From Candidatus Spongiihabitans thiooxidans (GTDB lineage: Bacteria; Pseudomonadota; Gammaproteobacteria; Arenicellales; Poriferihabitantaceae): a stretch of DNA of 64,000 nt. The notes beneath the pieces are model-generated. The model ran no database searches. It was not told the origin of the DNA and saw only the letters and a program-made list of their open reading frames with translations. Shown here piece by piece: positions 7,453 through 49,549 of the stretch. Within the stretch, counting starts at the first letter, position 1. Each line of letters starts with the position of its first letter. The position numbers and the translations under genes are program-made. The stretch lies in assembly GCA_001543005.1 (NCBI GenBank), contig LFLB01000022.1, forward strand, positions 243,956 through 307,955, given 5' to 3'.

Positions 7453-10400
7453 ATGAAAATAATTTCACCCATTGCGATTGACATGGGGGCAAAGAATACG
7501 GGGGTTTATCTTAACCACTTTGAACAAGGGGAAGATCCAACCACCAGCGGCAATATAGCAGGAAAGACGATTGTTATCGACAGCAGTAAAATCACTTGGT
7601 CGCAGGCTGGTCGAACGCAAAAACGTCATCAAGTTAGGGGTAATAAACGCCGAAAACTTGCGAAACGATTAATAAAAGTAATTTTAAAATCGCACTATGA
7701 ACTTGACATAGAGGAAAAGCAATTAGAGTTTTTAATGGGATTGCTCAACCGACGAGGCTACAATCGCATTGAACTAACACCGGAGCAAGAAGAAGTTTTA
7801 AGTACCAAAGCGGTTACTGAGTTCTTCTTTCCGCGCCTTTTTACTGAGCCAAGCACTGGCGTTTCGCTTTTGGATGGGCTGTCCGATAGAGTTATTATTA
7901 AAAACAAGGATAACCAAGACTATTGGAAAAGTGTTTTAAAAGATGATGTTTTCTCTTTGTCTGGAAAACAAAACAAAGAGTTTAAGGACTACTTAGCCCT
8001 TCATGACAAGGGAAAGGATAAAGATGAAATAGCAGATCTTTCCAAAGCGTTCACTGCAATCAAACAAGTTATTGGAAAGCAAATAGAAAATTATGATAGC
8101 GGTCATTTGCACCGCAGAGACTACTTGGAAAACATCAAGAAAGATGTACAAAATGAATTACTTAAATCTTTGCTGAGCGGCGATTTAACTGCCGAAAAAT
8201 TGTCCTTCCTGATTGGAAATGTTAGCAATCTGCAACTCAGAGTTTTACGAAAATATTTTAACGATTATGGTATGCAGTCAGGCGACAAGTGGGCACCAGA
8301 CAAACTGCACGAATTCTTTTTTAAGTGGGTAAGAAGTTGGCATTGTAAGCAGGATGATGAAAGAACGAACCAAAGGACTCTATTGGCTCGGAAGGGAAAG
8401 GACATTCTCGAAGTGTTCACCACATCTAACCCCGAGCTAAGCATCCCGCCATATGAAGACCAAAACAATCGGCGACCGCCGAAGGATATGACCTTGCGAT
8501 TAAAACCAAAAGGTTTAGATAATAAATTATCCAACTGGGAAAGTATTACTCGGTCATTGGTTAAGAGTTATTGTATGCCCCAAACCGAAAAAAATATTAT
8601 AGAACCTGTATGTATTCAAAAAAACCTGAAGGATAATGTGCGCCCGCAAAAGATAAAGGGCGAGGTCCAAGACACTGAACAAAGGCAAATACTAGCGGAT
8701 ACACTGCATCGTATTTTAGATCGAACCATTAAATTAGATCCTTACAAGTTGCGGTGGCTTAGTGAGGGGAGCAAAACCGATGAAGCGCAAAAAGCAAAGG
8801 AAGTATTGAACAGGCATAGCGAAAACAAAGCCGACGCTATTATCGATTTTGCAAAAGAATATTACGATGAAGTGGATATTGCGAAACAGGGTTTGTGGTC
8901 GGATAGTGAACAGAGTTTGTTTTTTAGATGTAATACCAATCCGCCTCATAAAAACAAGATTCAGCATAACCTTATTAGTCATATTTTGGGCGAAAATTTA
9001 AATGAACAAAGATTAAGCTACTTTGTGGATGACTGCTGGAATGAAAAAATAGGACGTTTAACCATTAAGGGCATTGCTAAAAAAACGGAAGAAGAACGCA
9101 AAAAATACGGCAACCGTTTTAAACATTTGGTGCAAAGACAAGTTTGGTTAAATAAACAAGGTGACAGGGAATTAGATAACGAAAGAAAGCATGGTGTTAA
9201 TGGCAAAGTTATTTTAGAAGTTCATGAAAAGTGTTTAAAAGCAACTGATAAAATTGCCGAATATTTTACGCACAATGATAGAAAGAAAAAGATTTATGCC
9301 AATGTTTTCAGCATGGCGCAACTTTACAATATTTTAGAAACCAATATTCGGGGATTTAGTAAAACTGATAATTGGAACACGATTGAAAACGCATGGCGTT
9401 CACGGAAAGATGACGCGGATGAACAAGGCGAGTATATTGCCAATGCTGTCAGGCTAACGGCTGATAGCATTCGCCCGTTTGATGGCATGCTGGACAGGAT
9501 TATCAGTCGTCAAGCCTATGAAATAGCTGGTATGAAAATCCAACAAATTGGAAACTTAAAGATTGATACAAATGATACTTTGTTTGTGCCTATTTTTATG
9601 GAGCAAAACCGTTTTTCATTTGAACAAAGTTTGCATGAAATAAAGGGCTTAAAAAATGTTAAAAAGAAAGCTAAAGAAAGAGTAGAAAAAGGCTTAAAGA
9701 AACAAAAAACACAATGGCAAAATAAAGACGATAGAATTAAGAAAAATAAATATTGTCCTTACACTGGCGGGATTATTGGCAAAGGTGAAATTGATCATAT
9801 AATTCCACAAAGTGAATCCAAAAAGCGCGGTGATGTGGTGTTTAACTCCGAGGCAAATTTAATTTATTGCTCTGGAACCGGCAACCATACAAAAGGCAAT
9901 GTTAGATGGACATTTGAGCAATTACACCCTAACTATTTAAACGAAGTTTTTGCAGGTGAAACCAACATAAAACAAACCATTATTGATTTTGTAAATGGTT
10001 TGGATGAAAACGATCCGATTAGTTTTCATAATTTAGAGGGAAAAGAGCAAAATTATTTACGCCACGCCCTATTTATTTCAGATTTAGACAGTAAAACTTT
10101 TCCAATCCTCAACACCCGATATAAAACTTTTGTCAATGGAACGCAAGGCTATCTTGGTAAGAAAATCCGAAAATTGTTGCAAGATAAATACCCAAATGTA
10201 GAGATAAAAACCTATCAAATACCAGCTCAAGAAGTCAGCCAATTACGAAAAGTTTTGGGTAGTCTTGACAAAACCTCTAAAAAACAAGATATACAAAGTG
10301 CTTTTTCACATGTGGTGGATGCTTCATTGGTGTTAGCCACTGCTTTGCAAAACCCTAAAATAGCCGAGGAATTGCAATCCACTAATGTAACTGAACTCAG

Positions 10401-12126
10401 TGAACAAGGGCAGTGGTTAAAAGCTTTATTGCCCACTCATGCAGATGTCCAACACATTGAACGCAAGCCAAAATATCGCAAAAACTTATCCTCTACGCAA
10501 ATTTTTAAAGAGGGTTTGTATGGCGAGCGGTTTATGCCGATTTTGTTAGACAATGAAAAACTGTATTATGGTTTTTCTTTGGACAATTGCCATGAAATTG
10601 AACCATTAAAACAACCAAAAAATCACAGCAAAGACTTTGACAAAAAAGTACTGACAGTCAAAGAAAAACAATTAGTAGCACATAATAAATATTTTGATTT
10701 ACTGAAAGAATTTTTATACACAGGTTCGAGCAGAAGGAAAAATAAAAAACCAGTTACTGATAGCATGCAAGATAATCAGGACAAATATTCATACTTATCC
10801 ATTGATACAATAAAGGCACTCAATCATCTGCAAAAGTGCGCCAAAGAGGTTTGCGATACCCGGGCAACAGAACAAGCAAAAAAATTGGAGAAACTTCGTT
10901 ATAGCGTGGAAAAGAAAAACATTAAAAACGTTTTACTGCAAGGACGAGGCAGACGCACTTTTATCAAACAATTAGACGATAAAAAATTTAAAGTATCAAA
11001 GTTAACACTACCTGCAAAAAAAGATTGGGAGCGATTAATAAACCACCCAATAATTGATTATCAAGGCAATAAGGTAACATTAAAAGAATGCTTTGACAAA
11101 CCAGAACAAGTGGAAATTGATAATCCAAAAATGGTTAATTTTTGGCAAGATTTATCGCAAGAAAGCGGTTTTAAAATTGAATATTTAAAAGATAATTTAC
11201 TTAAGAAAAATGACAAAGGAGAATTTTATAAACAATTGGGCATTATTCCAAAAGGTGTTTTTGACCAAAAAATCAAAACAATGAAGTTGTTAAAACCACT
11301 TGCAAATAGTGCATTACTCGAACAATCTTTTGGTGTTGAATTTAAAACAATGACTGATTTAATCCCTCAAGAAAGCTGGGATAAGTTATTTGAAGAATTT
11401 TTCCACACTAACAAAATTAAAAATAACAACTTCCATAAACAAGTCAGAAAAGATTACTCTTTGCCTGAGGTTTCTGCACCGTCTGGAGGGTTTAGAATTC
11501 AGCGCAAGAATTCACTAACAAATGAAACAATTTACCAAGTGAGCGCGATTGCTGACGGCGGATATGCATGTGGTTTCGCCAAGAAAAAAGACGGTAGCAT
11601 TGATATGAGTAAGAATGGAGTTACATTTAATCCTGCCTTAAAAGCGAGCCGTAGGACCGCCTATATTGGCAAGTCTGGAAAACCATATATTCATAAAGAA
11701 TCGGATAGTACTGAGGTGGAGTCATTCGGGAGTTCCCGAGAGGTTGCACTTAGTTCCGAAAGTGTATTGAAATGCCGCCTGACTTTGGCGGAAGCGAGCA
11801 GAATTGATGTTGCGATTACCATTTCTAACGATATATTCAAGAAAATAATAGAATTTTCAAGCGAGGATATTGATGTTTCTCAACCACCACCCGATTTTTC
11901 TATAAAATTTACGAAAAGCAATGGTGGAAGAGAAGAACATGACAAATTTAAAGAATTTTTGAATGCCATGAACATACCAACTCCGCGGGAGGCTGGAAAC
12001 CCACAGAGGTGGGCGTATAAGTTTGAGGTCCAAGCATCGCAAGATACGGTTGTTTTGTCATACAGAACATCCATGACAGCAGAATTAAAAACAGCTTACC
12101 TGAATGGCACGCTAGTAAATGATTAG
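7453..12126 (+). CDS. cas9: Cas9, type II-B (large Francisella/Legionella-like form)
   Basis: 1557 aa. RuvC-I PIAIDMGAKNTGV (D10); Arg-rich bridge helix RTQKRHQVRGNKRRKLAKRL; RuvC-II FVPIFMEQNRF (E717); HNH GEIDHIIPQS...NSEANLIYCS...GNHTKGN (D781-H782); RuvC-III SHVVDA (H953/D956). The N-terminus closely resembles what I recall of F. novicida Cas9 (MNFKILPIAIDLGVKNTGV...). RBS AGGAGA lies 7 nt upstream. It is followed by cas1-cas2-cas4 and an array. Confidence 0.95.
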   Translation: MKIISPIAIDMGAKNTGVYLNHFEQGEDPTTSGNIAGKTIVIDSSKITWSQAGRTQKRHQVRGNKRRKLAKRLIKVILKSHYELDIEEKQLEFLMGLLNRRGYNRIELTPEQEEVLSTKAVTEFFFPRLFTEPSTGVSLLDGLSDRVIIKNKDNQDYWKSVLKDDVFSLSGKQNKEFKDYLALHDKGKDKDEIADLSKAFTAIKQVIGKQIENYDSGHLHRRDYLENIKKDVQNELLKSLLSGDLTAEKLSFLIGNVSNLQLRVLRKYFNDYGMQSGDKWAPDKLHEFFFKWVRSWHCKQDDERTNQRTLLARKGKDILEVFTTSNPELSIPPYEDQNNRRPPKDMTLRLKPKGLDNKLSNWESITRSLVKSYCMPQTEKNIIEPVCIQKNLKDNVRPQKIKGEVQDTEQRQILADTLHRILDRTIKLDPYKLRWLSEGSKTDEAQKAKEVLNRHSENKADAIIDFAKEYYDEVDIAKQGLWSDSEQSLFFRCNTNPPHKNKIQHNLISHILGENLNEQRLSYFVDDCWNEKIGRLTIKGIAKKTEEERKKYGNRFKHLVQRQVWLNKQGDRELDNERKHGVNGKVILEVHEKCLKATDKIAEYFTHNDRKKKIYANVFSMAQLYNILETNIRGFSKTDNWNTIENAWRSRKDDADEQGEYIANAVRLTADSIRPFDGMLDRIISRQAYEIAGMKIQQIGNLKIDTNDTLFVPIFMEQNRFSFEQSLHEIKGLKNVKKKAKERVEKGLKKQKTQWQNKDDRIKKNKYCPYTGGIIGKGEIDHIIPQSESKKRGDVVFNSEANLIYCSGTGNHTKGNVRWTFEQLHPNYLNEVFAGETNIKQTIIDFVNGLDENDPISFHNLEGKEQNYLRHALFISDLDSKTFPILNTRYKTFVNGTQGYLGKKIRKLLQDKYPNVEIKTYQIPAQEVSQLRKVLGSLDKTSKKQDIQSAFSHVVDASLVLATALQNPKIAEELQSTNVTELSEQGQWLKALLPTHADVQHIERKPKYRKNLSSTQIFKEGLYGERFMPILLDNEKLYYGFSLDNCHEIEPLKQPKNHSKDFDKKVLTVKEKQLVAHNKYFDLLKEFLYTGSSRRKNKKPVTDSMQDNQDKYSYLSIDTIKALNHLQKCAKEVCDTRATEQAKKLEKLRYSVEKKNIKNVLLQGRGRRTFIKQLDDKKFKVSKLTLPAKKDWERLINHPIIDYQGNKVTLKECFDKPEQVEIDNPKMVNFWQDLSQESGFKIEYLKDNLLKKNDKGEFYKQLGIIPKGVFDQKIKTMKLLKPLANSALLEQSFGVEFKTMTDLIPQESWDKLFEEFFHTNKIKNNNFHKQVRKDYSLPEVSAPSGGFRIQRKNSLTNETIYQVSAIADGGYACGFAKKKDGSIDMSKNGVTFNPALKASRRTAYIGKSGKPYIHKESDSTEVESFGSSREVALSSESVLKCRLTLAEASRIDVAITISNDIFKKIIEFSSEDIDVSQPPPDFSIKFTKSNGGREEHDKFKEFLNAMNIPTPREAGNPQRWAYKFEVQASQDTVVLSYRTSMTAELKTAYLNGTLVND

Positions 12127-12853
12127 TGCCATCAACCCCAACCGCCAAAAAGCCCTGTTCCTTGCTAAAAAACAACTCCCTGAATTGGTATGCGATGCGG
12201 TGAACTTGGAGGGAGTGAACTTTACCCTGCCAGAGATACAAACCTTGCTGGACGGGATAACAGTGGGCGGGCATAGTTTGCAGGATGAGACGATTGCGCT
12301 TAATCAGGCCAATGCCTGGCGGTTTTTGTTTGATTGTGTTGAGCAAGACAGGTTTGCTCTTTCCAAAGATTTTGTTTGCGAATTGCACGGGATTCTTGCC
12401 CAGAAAGAAGCGCTGACCTGGGGTGTTTTCAGGGACGGCGGCGTAACCATTGCTGGCACCAATCATATCCCGCCGAGAGCGGACAAATTACCGACCTTGT
12501 GGCAACAGTTGACGGGAAAACATCATCCCGCCTTGCTACAATCAGAGATGCGCCAATCTAAGATAGACATCGAAAAAATAGACATCGAACAAATTTATAC
12601 CTGCGCTATTAGTTTATTTTTGCAAATGGCAAGGATGCAGTTTTTTTACGATACTAACAAACGCCTTGGGCGACTGATGATGAACGGCATTTTATTGGTA
12701 AACGGACTGCCCGCCATTAATCTGCCCGCTAAAAAACAGCTTGCATTTAATCAACTGATGCTGGATTTTTACGCCAGCGACGATGAGCAGCCAATGCAGC
12801 TTTTTATGCGTGCTTGTTTAGAGAGAAAAATTCTAGAAATAATGTCGGAATAA
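12119..12853 (+). CDS. Fic/Doc-fold-like protein with a degenerate catalytic motif, embedded in the cas operon
   Basis: 244 aa. Its ATG overlaps the cas9 stop by 8 nt, and its stop lies 5 nt before the cas1 ATG. Fic-like landmarks are NLEGVNFTLPEIQTLLDG and ELHGIL...GVFRDGGVTIAGTNHIPP. At the HxFx(D/E)GNGRxxR position it has QFFYDTNKRLGR (aa 174-185, nt 12638-12673). Confidence 0.75.
   Translation: MISAINPNRQKALFLAKKQLPELVCDAVNLEGVNFTLPEIQTLLDGITVGGHSLQDETIALNQANAWRFLFDCVEQDRFALSKDFVCELHGILAQKEALTWGVFRDGGVTIAGTNHIPPRADKLPTLWQQLTGKHHPALLQSEMRQSKIDIEKIDIEQIYTCAISLFLQMARMQFFYDTNKRLGRLMMNGILLVNGLPAINLPAKKQLAFNQLMLDFYASDDEQPMQLFMRACLERKILEIMSE
12563..12592. repeat. 15-bp x 2 in-frame tandem duplication inside the Fic/Doc-like ORF
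   Basis: atagacatcgaaaaa / atagacatcgaacaa (1 mismatch), encoding KIDIE-KIDIE. Confidence 0.9.
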
Positions 12854-12858
12854 ACTTC

Positions 12859-13845
12859 ATGCACGCCCACATAACGCTTACCGAATACGGCCAATTCATC
12901 GGTATAAAGAGTGAGTGTCTAACGGTAAAAGAGAACGGCACGGTCAAGGAATATCCGCTTAATCGCCTAAAAAGCATTCAGATCGCCAAGCAAGGCATCA
13001 GTTTTTCCTCGGATGTTATTATTGCTTGCGCTAATCGCGGCATTAAATTCTTCTTGTCTGATTTCAAGAATGAAATTATCTCTTGTCTTTCAGGCACACA
13101 GCAACACGCTGTTGTGCGCGTTCGGCAAAAGCAGTTCACATTTGTAAACAGCCCAAGCACGGCCATATTATCAGCCATTGTCATTGAGGGGAAAATCAAG
13201 AACCAACGCGCAACTCTGCTTTATTTTAAAAAATACCATCAAGACAAAGCCGCGATAATAGAAAAAACCGCCGAGCAATTAAAAACAATCTTACGACAGA
13301 TAAAAACCAAAGACTGGCAGAAATATGATCGCTGGCGAGATATTTTATTGGGGTTGGAAGGGCAAGCGGCCGCTCAATATTGGCAGTGTCTGGTTGAGAC
13401 AAATCTGATGCCGGATGATTTTAAGGGCAGGGTGGGCAGGCAAGCGCAGGATATTGGCAACAGGAGCTTAAATTACGGTTACGCCATCCTCACATCTTAT
13501 GTTTGGAATGCCTTGATCAATGCGGGCTTGGAGCCTTACGCCGGGTTTTTTCATGTCCAAAGAGCAGGCAAGCCGTCTTTGGTGCTTGATATGATGGAGG
13601 AATATCGCGCTTGGGCAGTGGATCGAAATATCATCAAGCACAGAGGTGTTTTGCGGGACAAAAACGAACTTACACCAATCATTAAAAAACAAATCATCAC
13701 CGATATTCATAAAACATTTTCCACTAAATATCATTATCACAAACGAAAAATACGATTGGAAAGTATTTTGCAAAGACAAATTTATCACTTGGCAGGCACA
13801 TTCGCGGGTGACAGGAAATACAAAAGCTATTGGTTCAGATGGTGA
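12859..13845 (+). CDS. cas1: Cas1 integrase
   Basis: The track ORF is 12814..13845. I prefer the ATG at 12859 (MHAHITLTEYGQFIG...). Cas1 landmarks: LLGLEGQAAAQYW, NRSLNYGYAIL, GFFHVQRAGKPSLVLDMMEEYR. Confidence 0.9.
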   Translation: MHAHITLTEYGQFIGIKSECLTVKENGTVKEYPLNRLKSIQIAKQGISFSSDVIIACANRGIKFFLSDFKNEIISCLSGTQQHAVVRVRQKQFTFVNSPSTAILSAIVIEGKIKNQRATLLYFKKYHQDKAAIIEKTAEQLKTILRQIKTKDWQKYDRWRDILLGLEGQAAAQYWQCLVETNLMPDDFKGRVGRQAQDIGNRSLNYGYAILTSYVWNALINAGLEPYAGFFHVQRAGKPSLVLDMMEEYRAWAVDRNIIKHRGVLRDKNELTPIIKKQIITDIHKTFSTKYHYHKRKIRLESILQRQIYHLAGTFAGDRKYKSYWFRW

Positions 13846-13849
13846 AGCC

Positions 13850-14158
13850 GTGGCGCAAGTAAAATTATACAATGAGGTTTTAGTAAGTTACGACATAGCC
13901 GATACCGGGCAGCGCACAAAACTGTTTAATAAACTGAAAGACATTAGCCTGACTTCAATACAAAAATCAGTATTTTGGGGGCATTTAAACAGGGCGGAAG
14001 AAACCAGCGTTAAATATTTATTGAAAACTTATTGCGCTAAAACGGATAAAGCCTTCATTGCCCGAGTCAAATTATCCGAACAAATCCAGCAGAACAACAG
14101 CGTGGGTTATGAGAAACAGGATTTCCCCCAATATTCCACAAGCTACCATGTCATATAG
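13850..14158 (+). CDS. cas2: Cas2
   Basis: The frame of track ORF 13646..14158 overlaps cas1 upstream. The Cas2 core LVSYDIADTGQRTKLFNKLKDISLTSIQKSVFWGHL begins just after cas1 ends. The most plausible start is the GTG at 13850, but this is uncertain. Confidence 0.75.
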   Translation: MAQVKLYNEVLVSYDIADTGQRTKLFNKLKDISLTSIQKSVFWGHLNRAEETSVKYLLKTYCAKTDKAFIARVKLSEQIQQNNSVGYEKQDFPQYSTSYHVI

Positions 14159-14726
14159 CTTGCCCATTAGTTTGCTCAGGCAATATTGTTTTTGTCCAAG
14201 AATTCCGTATTTTCAAGAATTGCTAAAACTCAATCCGCCCAAACCAGTGTGGGTCAAACAAGGCGAGGATTTGCACAAAGGCCAGGAAAAGATATTCAAA
14301 CACAGAACCTTAAAACGTTTTAACTTAGTGCAAGCCAAACAAGAATTCAATGTGTTTGTGAGCGCCGAAGAGTTGCAATTACACGGCATGGTGGATAGCC
14401 TGCTGAACAGCAACGAAGAAATCTACCCCATTGAATTCAAATTAAACGGGCACAAACCAGTCAAAGGGCAAATATTGCAACTCACCGCCTACGCTATGGT
14501 CGCGGAATACCAATACAACTTGCCTTGCAGACAGGGATTTATCCTTTTTGAAAATAAAGGCAAGACCCATCCGATAGTGTTCAAACTAAAGAACAAAGAA
14601 CAGGTGGTTATCATTCGGGACCAGATATTGAATGATTTAGAAAAATCCTATCTGCCGGATAGTCCGGCAACCCCAGCGCAATGCACGCAATGCGAATACT
14701 TAAATCATTGTAACGACAGAAGTTGA
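14148..14726 (+). CDS. cas4: Cas4 (RecB-like nuclease with Fe-S cysteines)
   Basis: The internal ATG at 14148 overlaps the cas2 stop. MSYSLPISLLRQYCFCPRIPYF (N-terminal Cys), IEFK (nuclease motif), and C-terminal CTQCEYLNHC. The presence of cas4 defines subtype II-B. Confidence 0.88.
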   Translation: MSYSLPISLLRQYCFCPRIPYFQELLKLNPPKPVWVKQGEDLHKGQEKIFKHRTLKRFNLVQAKQEFNVFVSAEELQLHGMVDSLLNSNEEIYPIEFKLNGHKPVKGQILQLTAYAMVAEYQYNLPCRQGFILFENKGKTHPIVFKLKNKEQVVIIRDQILNDLEKSYLPDSPATPAQCTQCEYLNHCNDRS

Positions 14727-14765: not shown

Positions 14766-14806
14766 CTAAAAAATCCCCCCATACTTAAAAAATATGGCGG
14801 GATTTT
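14766..14806. terminator. Bidirectional intrinsic terminator hairpin (cas operon end / tracrRNA end)
   Basis: Stem atccccccata (14773-14783) / tatggcgggat (14793-14803) with 1 mismatch and a 9-nt loop. It is followed by TTTT on the plus strand and by TTTTTT (complement of 14767-14772) on the minus strand. Confidence 0.6.
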
Positions 14807-14896
14807 GGTCAGATTTTACAACATGTCCAAGTTGATTCATCTTTATTTTAGATGATTTCAGTGCATCGCTTACTAGGTTATGATGTATCAGCACAG
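14766..14896 (-). ncRNA. tracrRNA: tracrRNA candidate
   Basis: Minus-strand 14891->14855 reads CUGAUACAUCAUAACCUAGUAAGCGAUGCACUGAAAU. It is collinear with the complement of the crRNA repeat over all 37 nt: 30 Watson-Crick pairs, 3 G-U pairs, and a 4-nt internal mismatch patch. Then come the hairpin CAUCU-AAAAUAA-AGAUG and a terminator with a U6 tail. The segment AUGCACUGAAAUCAUCUAAAAUAAAGAUGAA...GGAC resembles the F. novicida tracrRNA scaffold as I recall it (AAUGCUCUGUAAUCAUUUAAAAGUAUUUUGAACGGAC). The ends are approximate. Confidence 0.7.
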
Positions 14897-14902
14897 TGCG
14901 AA

Positions 14903-14931
14903 CTTATGACACAAATTTTCGCAAAATTCAA
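14903..14931 (-). promoter_or_regulatory. Candidate promoter for the tracrRNA
   Basis: On the minus strand: TTGAAT (14931-14926), a 17-nt spacer, then CATAAG (14908-14903). This places a start a few nt upstream of the anti-repeat. Sequence match only. Confidence 0.3.
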
Positions 14932-15016
14932 CGCTTTCCGGTATTTTTATGATTTTCGCAAAAACACCCAAAAAACACAGCAAGAAAAACAAGCCGAATC
15001 AGCATTCTAAAGCAGG

Positions 15017-17581
15017 CCGACACATCATAACCTAGTAAGCCAGCAACTGAAACCACACTGAGTGACTCACCTGATACGATCTCGCGAGCCGACACATCAT
15101 AACCTAGTAAGCCAGCAACTGAAACATGTTTATGTTAAATTTATGCAGGTCTATATTTTCCCGACACATCATAACCTAGTAAGCCAGCAACTGAAACCTG
15201 ACTAGATGACTGGCACCAACACCAACACCAGCCGACACATCATAACCTAGTAAGCCAGCAACTGAAACCTATCGGGCGTGGCGCATTTGTCCCGCTCCGG
15301 ATATCCGACACATCATAACCTAGTAAGCCAGCAACTGAAACGTCTTGACTCAAGTTGAGGAGCCTCCCACTTGCCCCGACACATCATAACCTAGTAAGCC
15401 AGCAACTGAAACGCCCACTGGCACACTGGCACACTGGCCCACTGGCCCGACACATCATAACCTAGTAAGCCAGCAACTGAAACCAATTTCCGCATTTGTA
15501 TTAATCTCAAGTGCGCGCCGACACATCATAACCTAGTAAGCCAGCAACTGAAACCAAAACTTCATGCGCTGCAAGTCCGAGGTGCGAGCCGACACATCAT
15601 AACCTAGTAAGCCAGCAACTGAAACATAGACAATCCCATAGTCTCAGCTATATAAGTATCCGACACATCATAACCTAGTAAGCCAGCAACTGAAACTCAG
15701 TCCCCGAATTCCTTGCTCGCTTGGCGGCGCCCGACACATCATAACCTAGTAAGCCAGCAACTGAAACCTCACATTAATTCAGCTGGCGCAGCAACATATT
15801 TCCGACACATCATAACCTAGTAAGCCAGCAACTGAAACAGAGTCGCGACACTGAACAGCAGTTGACATTCTCACCCGACACATCATAACCTAGTAAGCCA
15901 GCAACTGAAACAGGTCGGGATGATGGCTTTTGTCCAGCGGGACTTTGCCGACACATCATAACCTAGTAAGCCAGCAACTGAAACTGCAAAAATCGACTTT
16001 GATTAAGAGAGCCTTTTCTCCGACACATCATAACCTAGTAAGCCAGCAACTGAAACATCACAGTGACTTCGGTATGTGGCGCGTTGTATGCCGACACATC
16101 ATAACCTAGTAAGCCAGCAACTGAAACTTCCAATGGAGTGAGGAAAAAGGGCAGGAATAATCCGACACATCATAACCTAGTAAGCCAGCAACTGAAACGC
16201 ATAAACCGCCGCGAAAGATTCACTTTTTAAATCCCGACACATCATAACCTAGTAAGCCAGCAACTGAAACATTATATTCTACGTCGAATTCTGGCGTGTG
16301 AATGTCCGACACATCATAACCTAGTAAGCCAGCAACTGAAACCTCAATCTGAGTTCCATAACGCCAAATTGAAAATACCGACACATCATAACCTAGTAAG
16401 CCAGCAACTGAAACCCAGGGGATCGACGCCTTGCCGGTCGGCGGCGCCCAGCCCATTTTTTGCCGACACATCATAACCTAGTAAGCCAGCAACTGAAACA
16501 CAAGGCTCCATGCAACTCTATGGCCAAGCCTCAACCCGACACATCATAACCTAGTAAGCCAGCAACTGAAACCTGCGGCAAGCATTATACGCGCATACTC
16601 GCTATTGCCGCCGACACATCATAACCTAGTAAGCCAGCAACTGAAACTTATGGGAATCCCCATATACCAGTCTCCCGCTCACCGACACATCATAACCTAG
16701 TAAGCCAGCAACTGAAACAACTCATTGATTTTTATAGATTGTGTCATTTTTTGCCGACACATCATAACCTAGTAAGCCAGCAACTGAAACCAAGCTGGAC
16801 ATTGGTTTCTTCTGGATCAAAATCCGCCGACACATCATAACCTAGTAAGCCAGCAACTGAAACTGCGCGCCGCGGTAAATGCGACGGCGTGTTCTTGTCC
16901 GACACATCATAACCTAGTAAGCCAGCAACTGAAACGTTCGGCGTGTAATGCGAGTCCCACCAAGCATCGTCCGACACATCATAACCTAGTAAGCCAGCAA
17001 CTGAAACCCCATTGCTGCGCGGCGAGGATTAGTTTTTTTCCGCCGACACATCATAACCTAGTAAGCCAGCAACTGAAACCATTTTCATGCTATGCAATTA
17101 GATTTGCTCGACGCCGACACATCATAACCTAGTAAGCCAGCAACTGAAACTTTGGGTGTCTGCTCCCCGCCGCCACAACATAGCCGCCGACACATCATAA
17201 CCTAGTAAGCCAGCAACTGAAACAATCCCGTGGCGAGAATTTGCACAGCGGAATTAAACCGACACATCATAACCTAGTAAGCCAGCAACTGAAACCCGAC
17301 GCGGCAGCAGTAGAGTTACTAAATAATCGCCGACACATCATAACCTAGTAAGCCAGCAACTGAAACTCAAAATAGCCCCGGCGAATTTTCGGCGTCATGC
17401 CCCGACACATCATAACCTAGTAAGCCAGCAACTGAAACCAAGCGTTGAGAAGTTTCAATTCTGCAAGAATGCACCGACACATCATAACCTAGTAAGCCAG
17501 CAACTGAAACTTCGTAACAGCCTCTGTTTTTCATGCCCACATAACCGACACATCATAACCTAGTAAGCCAGCAACTGAAAC
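15017..17581 (-). CRISPR. CRISPR array, 36 repeats of 37 nt and 35 spacers (34-38 nt, one of 48 nt)
   Basis: The plus-strand repeat is ccgacacatcataacctagtaagccagcaactgaaac, identical in every one of the 36 copies I read (first 15017-15053, last 17545-17581). On the minus strand it begins GTTTCAGTTGCTG..., the same 5-prime repeat sequence I recall for the F. novicida II-B crRNA. Together with the tracrRNA strand, this indicates minus-strand transcription, antisense to the cas operon. Confidence 0.97.
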
Positions 17582-19220: not shown

Positions 19221-21101
19221 CTATGCCGCTCTTTTCGTTTTTTTAAGGTGTACCAATAGTAGCGATATGGCAGCCGGCGTTACCCCTGGAATTCGGGCTG
19301 CTTGTCCAATTGTTTGCGGTCGGGTAGCACTCAGTTTTTGTTGCGCTTCGGCGGACAGTCCGCGCGCATTTGCATAGTCGATATCGTCCGGGATCGCCAG
19401 GTTATCGCTGTTCTTCTGGCGTTCGATTTCCGCAACCTGACGTTCGATGTAGCCGCTGTATCTGGCTTGTATTTCGAGTTGTCGAATACTTTGTTGGTCT
19501 TGCAGCGGCGCATCGAGTTGGGCTAACTCAACCAGGTCTTGATAATTCACTTCTGGTCGTCGTAACAAATCCATCAAATTGGCCTCCCTTTGCAAGGGTT
19601 GACCCAGTATTTTTTCAATCGTCGCCGCATCTGTTTTATCCGGGTGAACCCAGGTTTTTTCCAATCGGGTTTTTTCTTTATCGATGTTGTCGCGTTTTTT
19701 GTTGAATGTCGAAATTCGCCGGTCATCCACAAGTCCAAGTTCATGGCCTTTGTCGGTCAACCTTAAATCTGCATTATCTTCTCGAAGCTGCAACCGATAT
19801 TCGGCGCGGGATGTGAACATCCTGTAAGGTTCCGCTGCGCCTCGGGTAATCAGGTCATCAATCATGACACCGATATAAGCCTCGTTTCTAGCCGGGCACC
19901 ATGGTTGGCGTTGCTTGATTTTCAAAGCCGCATTCAATCCGGCGATTAACCCCTGCCCGGCGGCTTCCTCATAGCCGGTAGTGCCATTTATTTGCCCTGC
20001 GAAAAACAACCCGTGGATACATTTGGTCTCCAATGAGATTTTTAATCCTCGTGGGTCAAAAAAGTCATACTCAATGGCATAGCCTGGTCGGGTTACCATT
20101 GCATTTTCGAATCCCTTTATAGATCGTACGAAATCAAGCTGAACATCAAACGGCAAGCTGGTTGAAATGCCATTGGGATAAACTTCGGTGGTGTTCAGTC
20201 CCTCGGGCTCGATAAAAATTTGATGGCTGTTTTGATCGGCAAATCGCACCACCTTGTCTTCGATTGAGGGACAATAACGCGGGCCCACGCCTTCGATGGC
20301 ACCGCCATAGAGCGGTGAACGATCCAGGGCGTTGATTATAATGTCATGGGTTTTGGTATTGGTGTGAGTGATATGACAGGAAACCTGGCGAGGGTGTTGA
20401 GAAACATCCCCAAGAAATGAAAATACCGGAACCGGATCGTCACCAGGCTGTTTATCCAGACAAGTATAGTCGATTGTTTTGCCATCTATACGAGGAGGTG
20501 TTCCGGTTTTAAGACGACCAACATTCAGGGGTAACTCTCGCAAGCGATCGGCCAATGCTAACGAAGGCGGATCACCAACCCGGCCGCCTTTTGAATTTTC
20601 CATCCCAACATGAATTTTTCCATTTAGAAAAGTCCCGGTAGTCAAGACCACGGTGGGCGATTCAAATTCAATGCCCAGTTGAGTTCGCACGCCTTTTATC
20701 TGCGCCCCTTCTACGATCAAATCATCCACCGATTGTTGAAACACGGTTAAGTTTTGCTGATGTTCCACGGCCCTGCGAATGGCCATTTTATATAACGCCC
20801 GGTCTGCCTGCGCCCGAGTGGCCTGAACCGCTGGCCCCTTGCGGGAATTTAATATTCTGAAGTGGATGCCGGCCTCATCAATTGCGCTGGCCATGACGCC
20901 GCCCAGAGCATCAATTTCCTTGACGATATGGCCCTTGCCGATTCCACCGATGGCCGGGTTACAGGACATTTGCCCTATGGTTTCAATATTATGGGTAACC
21001 AATAAAGTATTGCACCGCATCCGCGCCGAGGCCAGCGCGGCTTCTACACCGGCGTGACCGCCGCCGATGACAATGACCTCAAAAGATTCCGGGTATTTCA
21101 T
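19221..21101 (-). CDS. mnmG: tRNA uridine 5-carboxymethylaminomethyl modification enzyme MnmG (GidA)
   Basis: 626 aa: [22 protein letters not shown]...[14 protein letters not shown], the typical MnmG sequence. Confidence 0.95.
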
Positions 21102-44264: not shown

Positions 44265-45266
44265 TCAGGTAGCCGGCGTGAATTCATGAATCATGTGAAT
44301 AACCTCATCACTGTCCAGGCGAGACAAACAATGGCGGGGGCAATTACGTTTATCGCATACATCACATCCCGGTACACGAATAATACGATCCCGATGACCT
44401 AGCGGTCCCACTTTATTTTCGTCAGTGGGGCCGAATAAAGCAATGACCGGAGTTTGTTTTGCCTCGGCGACATGCATTGGAAAACTATCACCGGTGAGCA
44501 TTAAAGACGCTCGACTGGTGAGTTCAACGAACTCAAGTAAAGACTGCGCGCCGGCCATATTAACCGCACTTTGGCAATGCCCATCCTCAATACCTTGGTC
44601 AATGTGGATTTTTCGACCAGGCGCTCCGGTGAACACGACCTGATAGGTGTTGGATACTGCTTCACATACTTCCATATAATTTTTCAACGGCCAGTCTTTC
44701 GAAGGCCATCTTGAAAATGGACTGATAATGAGTATGGGTTTGTTTTCGAGGTTAATTTTCAACAACAACCGATCTACCGACAGTTTGTCGTCGTTGCCAA
44801 CGGCAAACTCCATGGTCGTGTCCCTGGTCGGGATTCCAACGACCTGCAGGAGTTGATCCATTTCCTTTATTGCGTGTAAATTTTTATTCCTGAACCCTTT
44901 TAACCCCCACCAGTTTCCCTTAACAAATTTATTTTCGGCTTTCGCGCCATAAAGAAAAAACACCGACTTGGCCAGTCCCTGCAAATCAATAGCGAGATCA
45001 AAATTGTGTTGACGAACCTCAGACATCAGCCGCATCATTTGTTTTATTGCCCACACCGGTTTTTTGCGCCAGTTCTTCTTGATGCCATCACGATCAATCA
45101 GCATGAACTCGTCAACCCAGGGGCTGTGTCGATAAATATCGGCTGAAGTATTGGCGGTTAACAAAAACAATTTGCTGTTCGGGTAGTGTTTTTTAATCGC
45201 CCGGATATGGCCACTGGCGTGAAGCACATCGCCCAGGGAAGTTTGTTTTATCACTAAAATATTCAT
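44265..45266 (-). CDS. Glycosyltransferase family 9 (LPS heptosyltransferase-like)
   Basis: MNILVIKQTSLGDVLHASGHIRAIKKHYP...; C-terminal LMLTGDSFPMHVA and ALFGPT. Confidence 0.8.
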   Translation of the reverse strand: MNILVIKQTSLGDVLHASGHIRAIKKHYPNSKLFLLTANTSADIYRHSPWVDEFMLIDRDGIKKNWRKKPVWAIKQMMRLMSEVRQHNFDLAIDLQGLAKSVFFLYGAKAENKFVKGNWWGLKGFRNKNLHAIKEMDQLLQVVGIPTRDTTMEFAVGNDDKLSVDRLLLKINLENKPILIISPFSRWPSKDWPLKNYMEVCEAVSNTYQVVFTGAPGRKIHIDQGIEDGHCQSAVNMAGAQSLLEFVELTSRASLMLTGDSFPMHVAEAKQTPVIALFGPTDENKVGPLGHRDRIIRVPGCDVCDKRNCPRHCLSRLDSDEVIHMIHEFTPAT

Positions 45267-47741: not shown

Positions 47742-48965
47742 TCAAAAATCGGTATTGCGTTTTCTGTTTGCGGCAATACGAAGACGTAGCGCGTTCAATT
47801 TAATAAAGCCAGTGGCGTCCGATTGATCATAGGCGCCGGCGTCTTCCTCAAACGTCACAATTTTTTTGTCAAACAGTGAATCCGAAACCGATTGGCGGCC
47901 AAGCACATCGACATTGCCTTTGTATAACCGTATTTTAACTTCGCCGTTAACCGACTCCTGAGAGGCGTCAATCATTTTTTGCATCATCAATCGCTCCGGA
48001 CTAAACCAATATCCATTGTAAATCAATTTTGCATAGCGTGGCATGAGCTCGTCTTTCAAATGCGCCACTTCCCGATCCAGGGTCAGTGATTCCATGGCAC
48101 GGTGAGTTTTCAGCATAATGGTTCCGCCAGGGGTTTCGTAACAGCCTCTGTTTTTCATGCCCACATAACGGTTCTCCACAATATCGGCGCGCCCGATGCC
48201 GTGTTTGCACCCCAATGTATTGAGCGCGATCAAAACCCCAGCTGGGGTTAACGCCTTGCCATCGACTGTAGTGATGTCACCTCTGCTAAATCCAATAATT
48301 ACTTGTTCGGCTTTATCCGGTGCGTCCATGGGCGAAGTTGTCCAGCTCCATACCCGATCGTCCGGCGTCTGCCAAGGATCCTCTAACTCTCCGCCTTCAT
48401 GGGAAATGTGCAGTAAGTTGGCGTCGATGGAGTAAGGCGAACCGCCGTCTCTTTTCTTTTCCACTTCAATGCCGTGCGTTTCAGCATACGCCATCAATCT
48501 TTCCCGGGAAGTCAGATTCCATTCTCGCCAAGGCGCAATAATGCGAATATCGGGGTTTAATGCGTAGGCGGATAATTCAAAACGCACTTGGTCGTTGCCC
48601 TTGCCGGTTGCGCCATGGGCAATCGCGTCGGCACCGGTTTTGTGCGCGATTTCAACCAAATACTTTGCAATCAAAGGGCGGGCAATGGCGGTTCCCAGCA
48701 TATATTCACCTTCATACATAGTGTTTGCCCGAATCATCGGAAACACATAATCCCGGGCAAACTCTTCTTTTAAATCCTCGATAAAAATTTCCTTAATGCC
48801 GAACTTCTCGGCTTTTAGTCGGGCCGGTTCAAGGTCTTCCCCCTGACCAATATCCGCGGTGAAGGTCACCACTTCGCAGTTATATTGGTCCTGCAACCAT
48901 TTCATAATAATCGAAGTATCCAGCCCACCTGAATAGGCAAGCACCGTTTTACTTATCTCAGACAT
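47742..48965 (-). CDS. argG: Argininosuccinate synthase
   Basis: 407 aa: [44 protein letters not shown]. Confidence 0.97.
48135..48168 (-). other. Protospacer: exact chromosomal match to CRISPR spacer 35
   Basis: 48135-48168 (ttcgtaacagcctctgtttttcatgcccacataa) is identical in all 34 nt to spacer 17511-17544. It lies in the argG codons for [12 protein letters not shown]. Confidence 0.97.
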
Positions 48966-49008
48966 CTTGATTTGTATTATTGGTAGGAAAAGGGCAATTA
49001 TATCATTG

Positions 49009-49369
49009 CACCTGATACACGTTTATTTTAAAGGAAACGGCACGAGCCAAACTGAAAATACATAACTTGAATCCACGGTATCTTGTGCCCTATCTAAGAA
49101 TATTGTTAAAAAGGGGGCACCTAATACATGTTTATTTTAAAGGAAACGGCACGAGCCAAACTGAAAATACATAACTTGAATTCACGGTATCTTGTGCCCT
49201 ATCTAAGAATATTGTTAAAAAGGGGGCACCTAATACATGTTTATTTTAAAGGAAACGGCACGAGCCAAACTGAAAATACATAACTTGAATTCACGGTATC
49301 TTGTGCCCTATCTAAGAATATTGTTAAAAAGGGGGCACCTGATACATGTTTATTTTAAAGGAAACGGCA
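49009..49369. repeat. 109-bp tandem repeat, 3.3 copies, in the argG-argF divergent intergenic region
   Basis: Copies start at 49009, 49118, 49227 and 49336 (the last is partial, ~34 nt). Copies 2 and 3 are identical, and copy 1 differs at 3 positions. Each unit contains the imperfect inverted repeat ggcacgag...cttgtgcc, 35 nt apart. Confidence 0.95.
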
Positions 49370-49549
49370 TCGAGTATAGGCATGCTAAAAATCTTAAATA
49401 CATTGACGTTTATGCCCGATCTTAAGAAATATCATGAAAAAGGGTAGAAAATCATTGTCGTTTAAGTAAACTACACTGACAATAGGTGCCGGTTTATTGG
49501 CGTTTTTTGTTTACTTGCCAACAACAGGCCAGCAATAGAAATTACCGCC

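Follow-up and report, generated by a model that had tools for sequence, protein, structure and literature searches.

Introduction

How can a bacterium carry an apparently functional CRISPR-Cas system together with a spacer that matches one of its own intact genes letter for letter? This question is raised by a stretch of 64,000 nucleotides (nt) from Candidatus Spongiihabitans thiooxidans (contig LFLB01000022.1, positions 243,956 to 307,955 of the forward strand; hereafter the window). By its gene content, the CRISPR-Cas locus within the window is a complete type II-B system, and spacer 35, the last spacer at the cas-distal end of its array, is identical to a segment of argG, the gene for argininosuccinate synthase. 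We consider it likely that the self-match is tolerated because the site has no protospacer adjacent motif (PAM) on the side that Cas9 would read. More specifically, we hold it probable on balance that the spacer was inserted into the array backwards, that it is PAM-less for this reason, and that it is tolerated as a consequence.

Results and discussion

The match between spacer 35 and argG

Spacer 35 agrees with its argG protospacer at 34 of 34 bases, without a mismatch, and this is the only further match of the spacer in the window; a second match arose in none of 100 shuffles of the window (0/100). The correspondence is far beyond chance. No other spacer matched the window with up to eight mismatches allowed, which leaves spacer 35 as the only self-match. 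Its borders are sharp: the match ends exactly at position 48135, where the array reads C against a T in the genome, and at the opposite end a single extra C is held in common with the first base of the repeat. The gene itself is full-length, and its neighbors are core genes, namely lipopolysaccharide genes, a divergent gene for ornithine carbamoyltransferase, hda, and purM. Read in the orientation of the predicted CRISPR RNA (crRNA), the spacer is in frame with the argG codons, so that this RNA and the argG mRNA are of the same sense; the crRNA would pair with the template DNA strand and not with the mRNA, as the first-pass annotation of this DNA had stated.

The donor of the spacer need not have been the resident chromosome. 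Incoming DNA with a copy of argG, whether from a phage, a plasmid, or a sister strain, could have supplied it, and large plasmids as well as one phage record do contain homologues of argG. These mobile homologues are just 68%–79% identical to the argG region, while an exact 34-nt match spans about 11 wobble positions and needs self DNA or a near-identical strain. We therefore regard a foreign donor as very improbable; even if true, it would alter the donor and not the PAM logic developed below. The phage record in question, that of Pseudomonas phage Y5 (OQ572407.1; unannotated), contains at 45089-45251 an argG-like stretch that is 79% identical to positions 48041-48203 of the window over 163 nt.

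Flanks of the protospacer

On the plus strand, the protospacer is preceded by ccaggggt and followed by cggttctc. In crRNA sense (the minus strand), the context accordingly reads gagaaccg, then TTATGTGG...ACGAA, then acccctgg, and the flanks given in the first-pass annotation were exact when re-read from the sequence. On the side where a type II PAM would be read, no NGG is present, again as annotated: the first three positions are ACC, and the nearest GG lies only at positions 7-8. This flank encodes the T-P-G of the conserved ETPGG motif of argG. Escape through mutation of a former PAM was considered and rejected, since codons for a conserved T-P-G could never have provided AGG there.

The opposite end of the protospacer differs from this side, as a CGG directly abuts it without a gap. 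This triplet would be a canonical NGG if the prespacer had been captured on the plus strand and then integrated in reverse. NGG occupies 5.8% of positions in the window (a frequency of 0.058), and the far-side CGG is a single event that would arise by chance about once in 17 cases; it is suggestive and not proof. Because of this background frequency, the likelihood ratio of a flipped capture over a capture blind to the PAM is roughly 16.

Transcription strand of the array

Which flank counts as the PAM side depends on the strand from which crRNAs are made. We infer that they are transcribed from the minus strand, with the array running opposite to the cas operon, because the strand anatomy of the trans-activating crRNA (tracrRNA), its covariation in two related loci, and transcriptome sequencing (RNA-seq) in Francisella novicida all point that way. 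The predicted tracrRNA gene lies between cas4 and the array, and its anti-repeat, which differs from the repeat's reverse complement at 7 positions, is the only repeat-like element beyond the array in the window. Cofolded with the minus-sense repeat, the anti-repeat gives -80.2 kcal/mol and is accompanied by tail hairpins and a terminator. The tail that would follow it on the plus strand is unstructured (-7.0 kcal/mol over 111 nt) and without a terminator. A search of Rfam for tracrRNA gave no match. The related loci L001 and L005, whose Cas9 proteins are 53% and 61% identical to that of the window, keep the same layout, and in both the anti-repeat covaries with the repeat; in L001, a terminator U-tract is found only on the strand opposite cas9. 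The minus-sense repeat of the window array begins GUUUCAGUUGC, which we take to be also how the guide scaffold of the F. novicida Cas9 (FnCas9) begins (GUUUCAGUUGC). RNA-seq in F. novicida showed transcription of its type II-B array to run against that of the cas operon (PMC3737331).

With minus-strand crRNAs, Cas9 would find ACCCCTGG at the PAM position, which lies 3' of the protospacer on the strand with the sequence of the guide. A model with plus-strand crRNAs was rejected, as such a transcript would resemble the anti-repeat of the tracrRNA and would not pair with it. Since a plus-strand transcript would not pair with the anti-repeat, the CGG at 48169-48171 would be unable to serve as the functional PAM. 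The tracrRNA anatomy thus agrees with the earlier view that this CGG stands on the unusable side.

The same geometry bears on the idea that the crRNA regulates argG, in the manner of the small CRISPR-Cas-associated RNA (scaRNA) through which FnCas9 represses an endogenous gene. Pairing with the template strand is the weak orientation for blocking transcription by dCas9 interference, and pairing with the mRNA is precluded by the sense of the guide. The likeness to scaRNA is that a type II-B Cas9 guide matches a chromosomal gene, and type II-B Cas9 can indeed repress self genes without cutting (PMC12231574). However, scaRNA repression needs a PAM, partial complementarity (about 11-14 base pairs), and a target in the 5' untranslated region, whereas the complementarity here is 34/34, the flank is ACC, the target lies in the middle of a coding region, and the guide is sense. 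No extra degenerate, scaRNA-like repeat was found near the tracrRNA gene when repeat-like elements were sought across the window. A regulatory role is hardly credible on these grounds.

The PAM expected of the window Cas9

The window Cas9 probably requires G at PAM positions 2 and 3, judging from the conservation of its PAM-reading residues and from the published PAMs of the subtype. The nearest solved structure is that of Parasutterella secunda Cas9 (PsCas9; 8UMF/9KO9; E about 1e-153), and the RuvC D as well as the HNH DH..N motifs line up with it. PsCas9 recognizes GG through R1316 and R1369, and S1223 assists (PMC11544209). In the chain numbering, which is native plus 22, these are residues 1338, 1391, and 1245, located in the motifs SGRRYIEIT, GKPRSG, and SISSG. 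When 87 type II-B Cas9 C-termini were aligned with a PsCas9 fragment (88 sequences), these three PsCas9 residues fell in register with R1450 (AEASRIDVAI), R1512 (IPTPREAG), and S1344 of the window Cas9. The two GG-reading columns hold arginine in 85/88 and 81/88 sequences, and 75 sequences have serine in the assisting column. A comparison of window-type and PsCas9-type C-termini with hhalign also placed both arginines in register (probability 99.7%, E 5e-26).

All published type II-B PAMs are NGG: FnCas9 reads it via R1585 and R1556 (PMC12231574), PsCas9 has the same PAM (PMC10482872), and NGG was derived from 15 protospacers for Vibrionaceae type II-B systems (PMC6360697). A 2025 preprint likewise summarizes type II-B PAMs as 'short NGG'. 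The first-pass annotation had made tolerance of the self-match conditional on a G-rich PAM, and its suggested checks included a comparison of PAM-interacting residues and a derivation of the PAM from protospacers of the other spacers. The PAM-reading residues, together with the published PAMs, support this condition indirectly; the derivation from protospacers produced nothing convincing in phage, plasmid, viral, or metagenome collections.

For that derivation, the whole window array was compared by BLAST with 50,697 GenBank phage and 72,556 PLSDB plasmid records and returned only short, weak matches at chance level, while the 69 spacers of the L001 array had no match among GenBank phages and PLSDB plasmids. 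Eight scans of IMG/VR, covering 16 window spacers as pairs merged in the ambiguity code of the International Union of Pure and Applied Chemistry (26/33, 32/34, 28/30, 21/27, 23/25, 16/31, 1/4, and 2/19), found no match, nor did a metagenome scan with the pair 34/31. A scan for the repeat family (CCGACAC-N18-AGCAACTGAAAC) in metagenome contigs of the Joint Genome Institute turned up no arrays, its 7 matches being single-copy and due to chance. When all 104 spacers were compared by local BLAST with the window and the related loci, the sole results were the argG match and one pair of duplicate spacers in L001.

Origin of the self-matching spacer

We propose the following course of events. Spacer 35 would have been taken from the cell's own argG, or from that of a near-identical relative, with the prespacer captured beside a canonical NGG, the plus-strand CGG. 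It would then have been integrated in reverse orientation ('flipped'). The minus-strand crRNA would consequently face ACC, with G at neither PAM position 2 nor 3, and Cas9 could not license binding or cleavage at the argG site. Thus, argG would remain intact and the self-match would be carried as a neutral passenger; the lack of a usable PAM would explain why both argG and the CRISPR system are intact. Among the three origins offered in the first-pass annotation (reversed integration, errors of Cas4-dependent processing, or a different PAM), reversed integration fits best, with the CGG abutting the spacer end.

Precedent for such events comes from a type I-F system, whose documented flipped spacers have the PAM complement at their far end and are non-functional for interference (PMC5059440). 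In the same system, chromosomal spacers that survive in populations are depleted of canonical PAMs and enriched for non-canonical ones (PMC5059440). With NGG as the PAM, our case would be alike in that the functional side is without a PAM and the PAM or its complement stands directly at the far end. For type II-B, the 2025 preprint proposes, without demonstrating it, that Cas4-Cas1-Cas2 chooses prespacers and sets their orientation in the way of type I systems. On that view, the flip may be a lapse of Cas4-dependent end protection.

It is also conceivable that spacer 35 is PAM-less and tolerated but was never flipped, having been captured regardless of any PAM through aberrant Cas4/Cas1-Cas2 processing or a large slip, with the CGG a coincidence. 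The event is a single one, NGG has the background frequency given above, and among the chromosomal spacers that survive, non-canonical acquisitions are over-represented (PMC5059440). Against this, the CGG sits flush with the end of the spacer, which is where a PAM-ruled cut would place it, and the nearest functional-side GG, at positions 7-8, is beyond the documented slips of 1-3 nt (PMC5059440). In addition, two independent spacers of L001 derive from one site with the same boundaries and orientation. Capture blind to the PAM is in our judgment unlikely.

Several points weigh against the flipped-spacer explanation. A lone CGG would stand at the far side by accident in about 6% of cases. Flipping has been quantified in type I-F and not in type II-B; the type I-F work rests on millions of events, whereas we have one event, in a type II-B system with Cas9, Cas4, and a predicted PAM. 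No convincing protospacer that would show this PAM was found for any window or L001 spacer in the collections searched. The window Cas9 moreover has a divergent variant of the C-terminal domain, in which an insertion directly follows R1512. Among Cas9 proteins 43%–67% identical to it (P0001-P0028), three C-terminal variants occur, which are the window type, a PsCas9-like type, and that of P0015 and P0026. Proteins more than 55% identical to the window Cas9 carry the other two variants, and P0015 and P0026 have lost both arginines. This pattern suggests swapping of the domain among relatives, possibly with differing PAMs. Because its domain is divergent, bears the insertion after R1512, and varies among relatives, an altered or extended PAM is possible for the window Cas9.

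The divergence of the PAM-interacting region and the swapping of C-terminal variants among close relatives are also what favors a non-NGG PAM outright. In that case ACC(CC) would be licensed and argG would be a true autoimmune target, with interference switched off (by an anti-CRISPR, repression, or low crRNA levels) or with the genotype only transient. This explanation is improbable, given that both GG-reading arginines and the assisting serine are kept in register, that the published type II-B PAMs are uniformly NGG, and that the cas genes, repeats, and tracrRNA show no signs of decay. In a more specific form, the window-type C-terminal domain might read a C-rich PAM such as ACC, so that argG is licensed and a brake on interference is needed. 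This brake could be an anti-CRISPR yet to be discovered, or else a regulator, for which the Fic protein from within the cas operon is a conceivable candidate. We judge this version quite improbable.

The CRISPR-Cas locus

The features on which the argument rests are collected in Table 1. The gene calls for the Fic gene and for cas1, cas2, and cas4 were taken from an identical Logan contig and their coordinates converted (offset 2548).

Table 1. Positions in the window of the CRISPR-Cas features, spacer 35, and its argG target
Feature	Position	Strand	Details
cas9	7453-12126	+	Csx12-type, 1557 amino acids, type II-B effector; TIGR03031, 501.8 bits against a cutoff of 399.4
Fic/DOC-domain gene	12119-12853	+	244 amino acids, between cas9 and cas1; Pfam PF02661, 35.2 bits against a cutoff of 24
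Adaptation genes	12859-14726	+	cas1 12859-13845, cas2 13808-14158, cas4 14148-14726; NCBIfam matches, all above cutoffs
tracrRNA gene (predicted, ends approximate)	14767-14905	-	anti-repeat 14855-14891; nexus-like hairpin 14838-14854; terminator hairpin 14773-14803, then U-tract
Conserved non-coding block	14916-14965		50 nt, between tracrRNA gene and first repeat; two ATTTTCGCAAAA motifs
CRISPR array	15017-17581	crRNAs predicted from -	36 identical 37-nt repeats, 35 spacers; plus-strand repeat CCGACACATCATAACCTAGTAAGCCAGCAACTGAAAC
Spacer 35	17511-17544	-	cas-distal array end; plus-strand letters TTCGTAACAGCCTCTGTTTTTCATGCCCACATAA; predicted crRNA guide 5'-UUAUGUGGGCAUGAAAAACAGAGGCUGUUACGAA-3'
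argG	47742-48965	-	argininosuccinate synthase, 407 amino acids, intact; NF001770, 618.7 bits against a cutoff of 334, residues 2-402 covered
PAM-side flank, predicted functional	48127-48134	-	crRNA sense ACCCCTGG; PAM positions 1-3 ACC, G at neither 2 nor 3
Protospacer	48135-48168	-	34/34 to spacer 35, inside argG
CGG	48169-48171	+	abuts far protospacer end (48168), no gap; NGG if prespacer was captured on this strand and integrated reversed

The cas1-cas2-cas4 module sits downstream of cas9, as in type II-B, with the extra Fic gene intervening; PF21069 (Csx12) was also recorded for the Cas9, and the 37-nt repeat length is typical of the subtype (PMC3737331). With its identical repeats, cas genes above family cutoffs, aligned catalytic motifs, and a full-length argG, the system looks functional. 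The start of the Fic gene overlaps the cas9 stop codon by 8 nt, and the gene is probably co-transcribed with cas9 because of this overlap. It is absent from L001 and L005, where cas1 lies directly 3' of cas9.

Some spacers stand out within the array. Spacer 20 (16415-16462) is 48 nt long, the others being 34-38 nt, and spacer 6 (15413-15446) is a low-complexity run of CACTGG-like units. Spacer 26 (16864-16898) and the reverse complement of spacer 33 (17367-17401) are alike at 21 of 35 positions from end to end, a marginal likeness, since 9 of 200 shuffles did as well. Were the likeness genuine, it would add a second instance of one site captured in both orientations. Near the target, a 109-base-pair unit is repeated in 3.4 copies at 98% identity (49008-49374) between the starts of argG (48965) and of the ornithine carbamoyltransferase gene (49550). 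These genes are divergent, and the repeats therefore cover the promoter region of both.

Related loci

L001 was the one related locus found when a genome collection was scanned with the window Cas9, and exact look-ups of close Cas9 relatives gave no array besides its own. L005 ends in its first repeat. Spacers 43 (19569-19603) and 56 (20504-20538) of L001 are copies of one 35-nt sequence that differ by a single mismatch and agree in orientation and boundaries. Capture of one site twice suggests that acquisition in this family is precise and directional.

The closest Cas9 relatives, 65%–67% identical, are encoded by lone cas9 genes in L003 (10001-14659) and L004 (10001-14668), in which no cas1, cas2, or cas4 was called and no repeat of the window family was found. 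In both loci, cas9 is followed by a small open reading frame and a tyrosine recombinase gene. Upstream glycine-betaine transporter genes are common to L003, L004, and the window.

Leader and age of spacer 35

The non-coding block that separates the tracrRNA gene from the first repeat is conserved in L001 (about 16400-16455) and L005 (about 16690-16745), even though the Cas9 proteins are only 53%–61% identical. Upstream of the anti-repeat, its minus strand reads TTGAAT and then, past a spacer of 17-18 nt, a hexamer resembling a -10 element. The block is probably the tracrRNA promoter, the leader, or both. The cas-distal flank of the array is not conserved between the window and L001. The 2025 preprint argues that type II-B arrays, like those of type II-C, are transcribed towards the leader. 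From its place at the transcription-proximal end of the array, spacer 35 might be expected to be the newest spacer. The evidence instead leans towards a cas-proximal leader, by which it would be the oldest; this lean is tempered, as part of the block is probably the tracrRNA promoter.

If the leader is cas-proximal, spacer 35 would have been carried through 34 later acquisitions, which would argue strongly for its inertness. If the leader is cas-distal, spacer 35 would be the newest, and the newest array position is the usual one for self-derived spacers (PMC5059440). Either polarity fits the flipped-spacer explanation.

Comparison with known systems

The window system resembles those of FnCas9 and PsCas9 in several respects. 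[quoted passage not shown] However, its Cas9 is only distantly related to both, and just partial regions align with FnCas9 (E about 1e-56). It also differs in its distinct C-terminal variant, in the Fic gene within the operon, and in having no scaRNA-like extra repeat.

Self-targeting spacers have been seen as tolerated autoimmunity (Stern et al. 2010, as cited in PMC5059440). Those cases resemble ours in the exact match to a chromosomal housekeeping gene, the position of the spacer at the array end, and, if the PAM here is NGG, tolerance without a usable PAM. The window retains cas genes, repeats, a tracrRNA, and a target that are intact throughout. By contrast, many of the earlier self-targeting cases reportedly came with degraded cas loci or mutated targets.

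Conclusions

Flipped spacers and PAM-less self-targeting are known kinds of event, and the locus would be a tidy example of them in a little-studied subtype, not a new mechanism. If our explanation is true, it would be a clean natural example of CRISPR autoimmunity avoided by accident, through a self-derived spacer inserted backwards. If the NGG inference holds, the strain would be a poor lead in the hunt for anti-CRISPRs. The finding would also mean that the Cas4-containing adaptation module of type II-B makes type I-like orientation errors, and such errors, if true, would bear on the proposal that integration in type II-B is type I-like.

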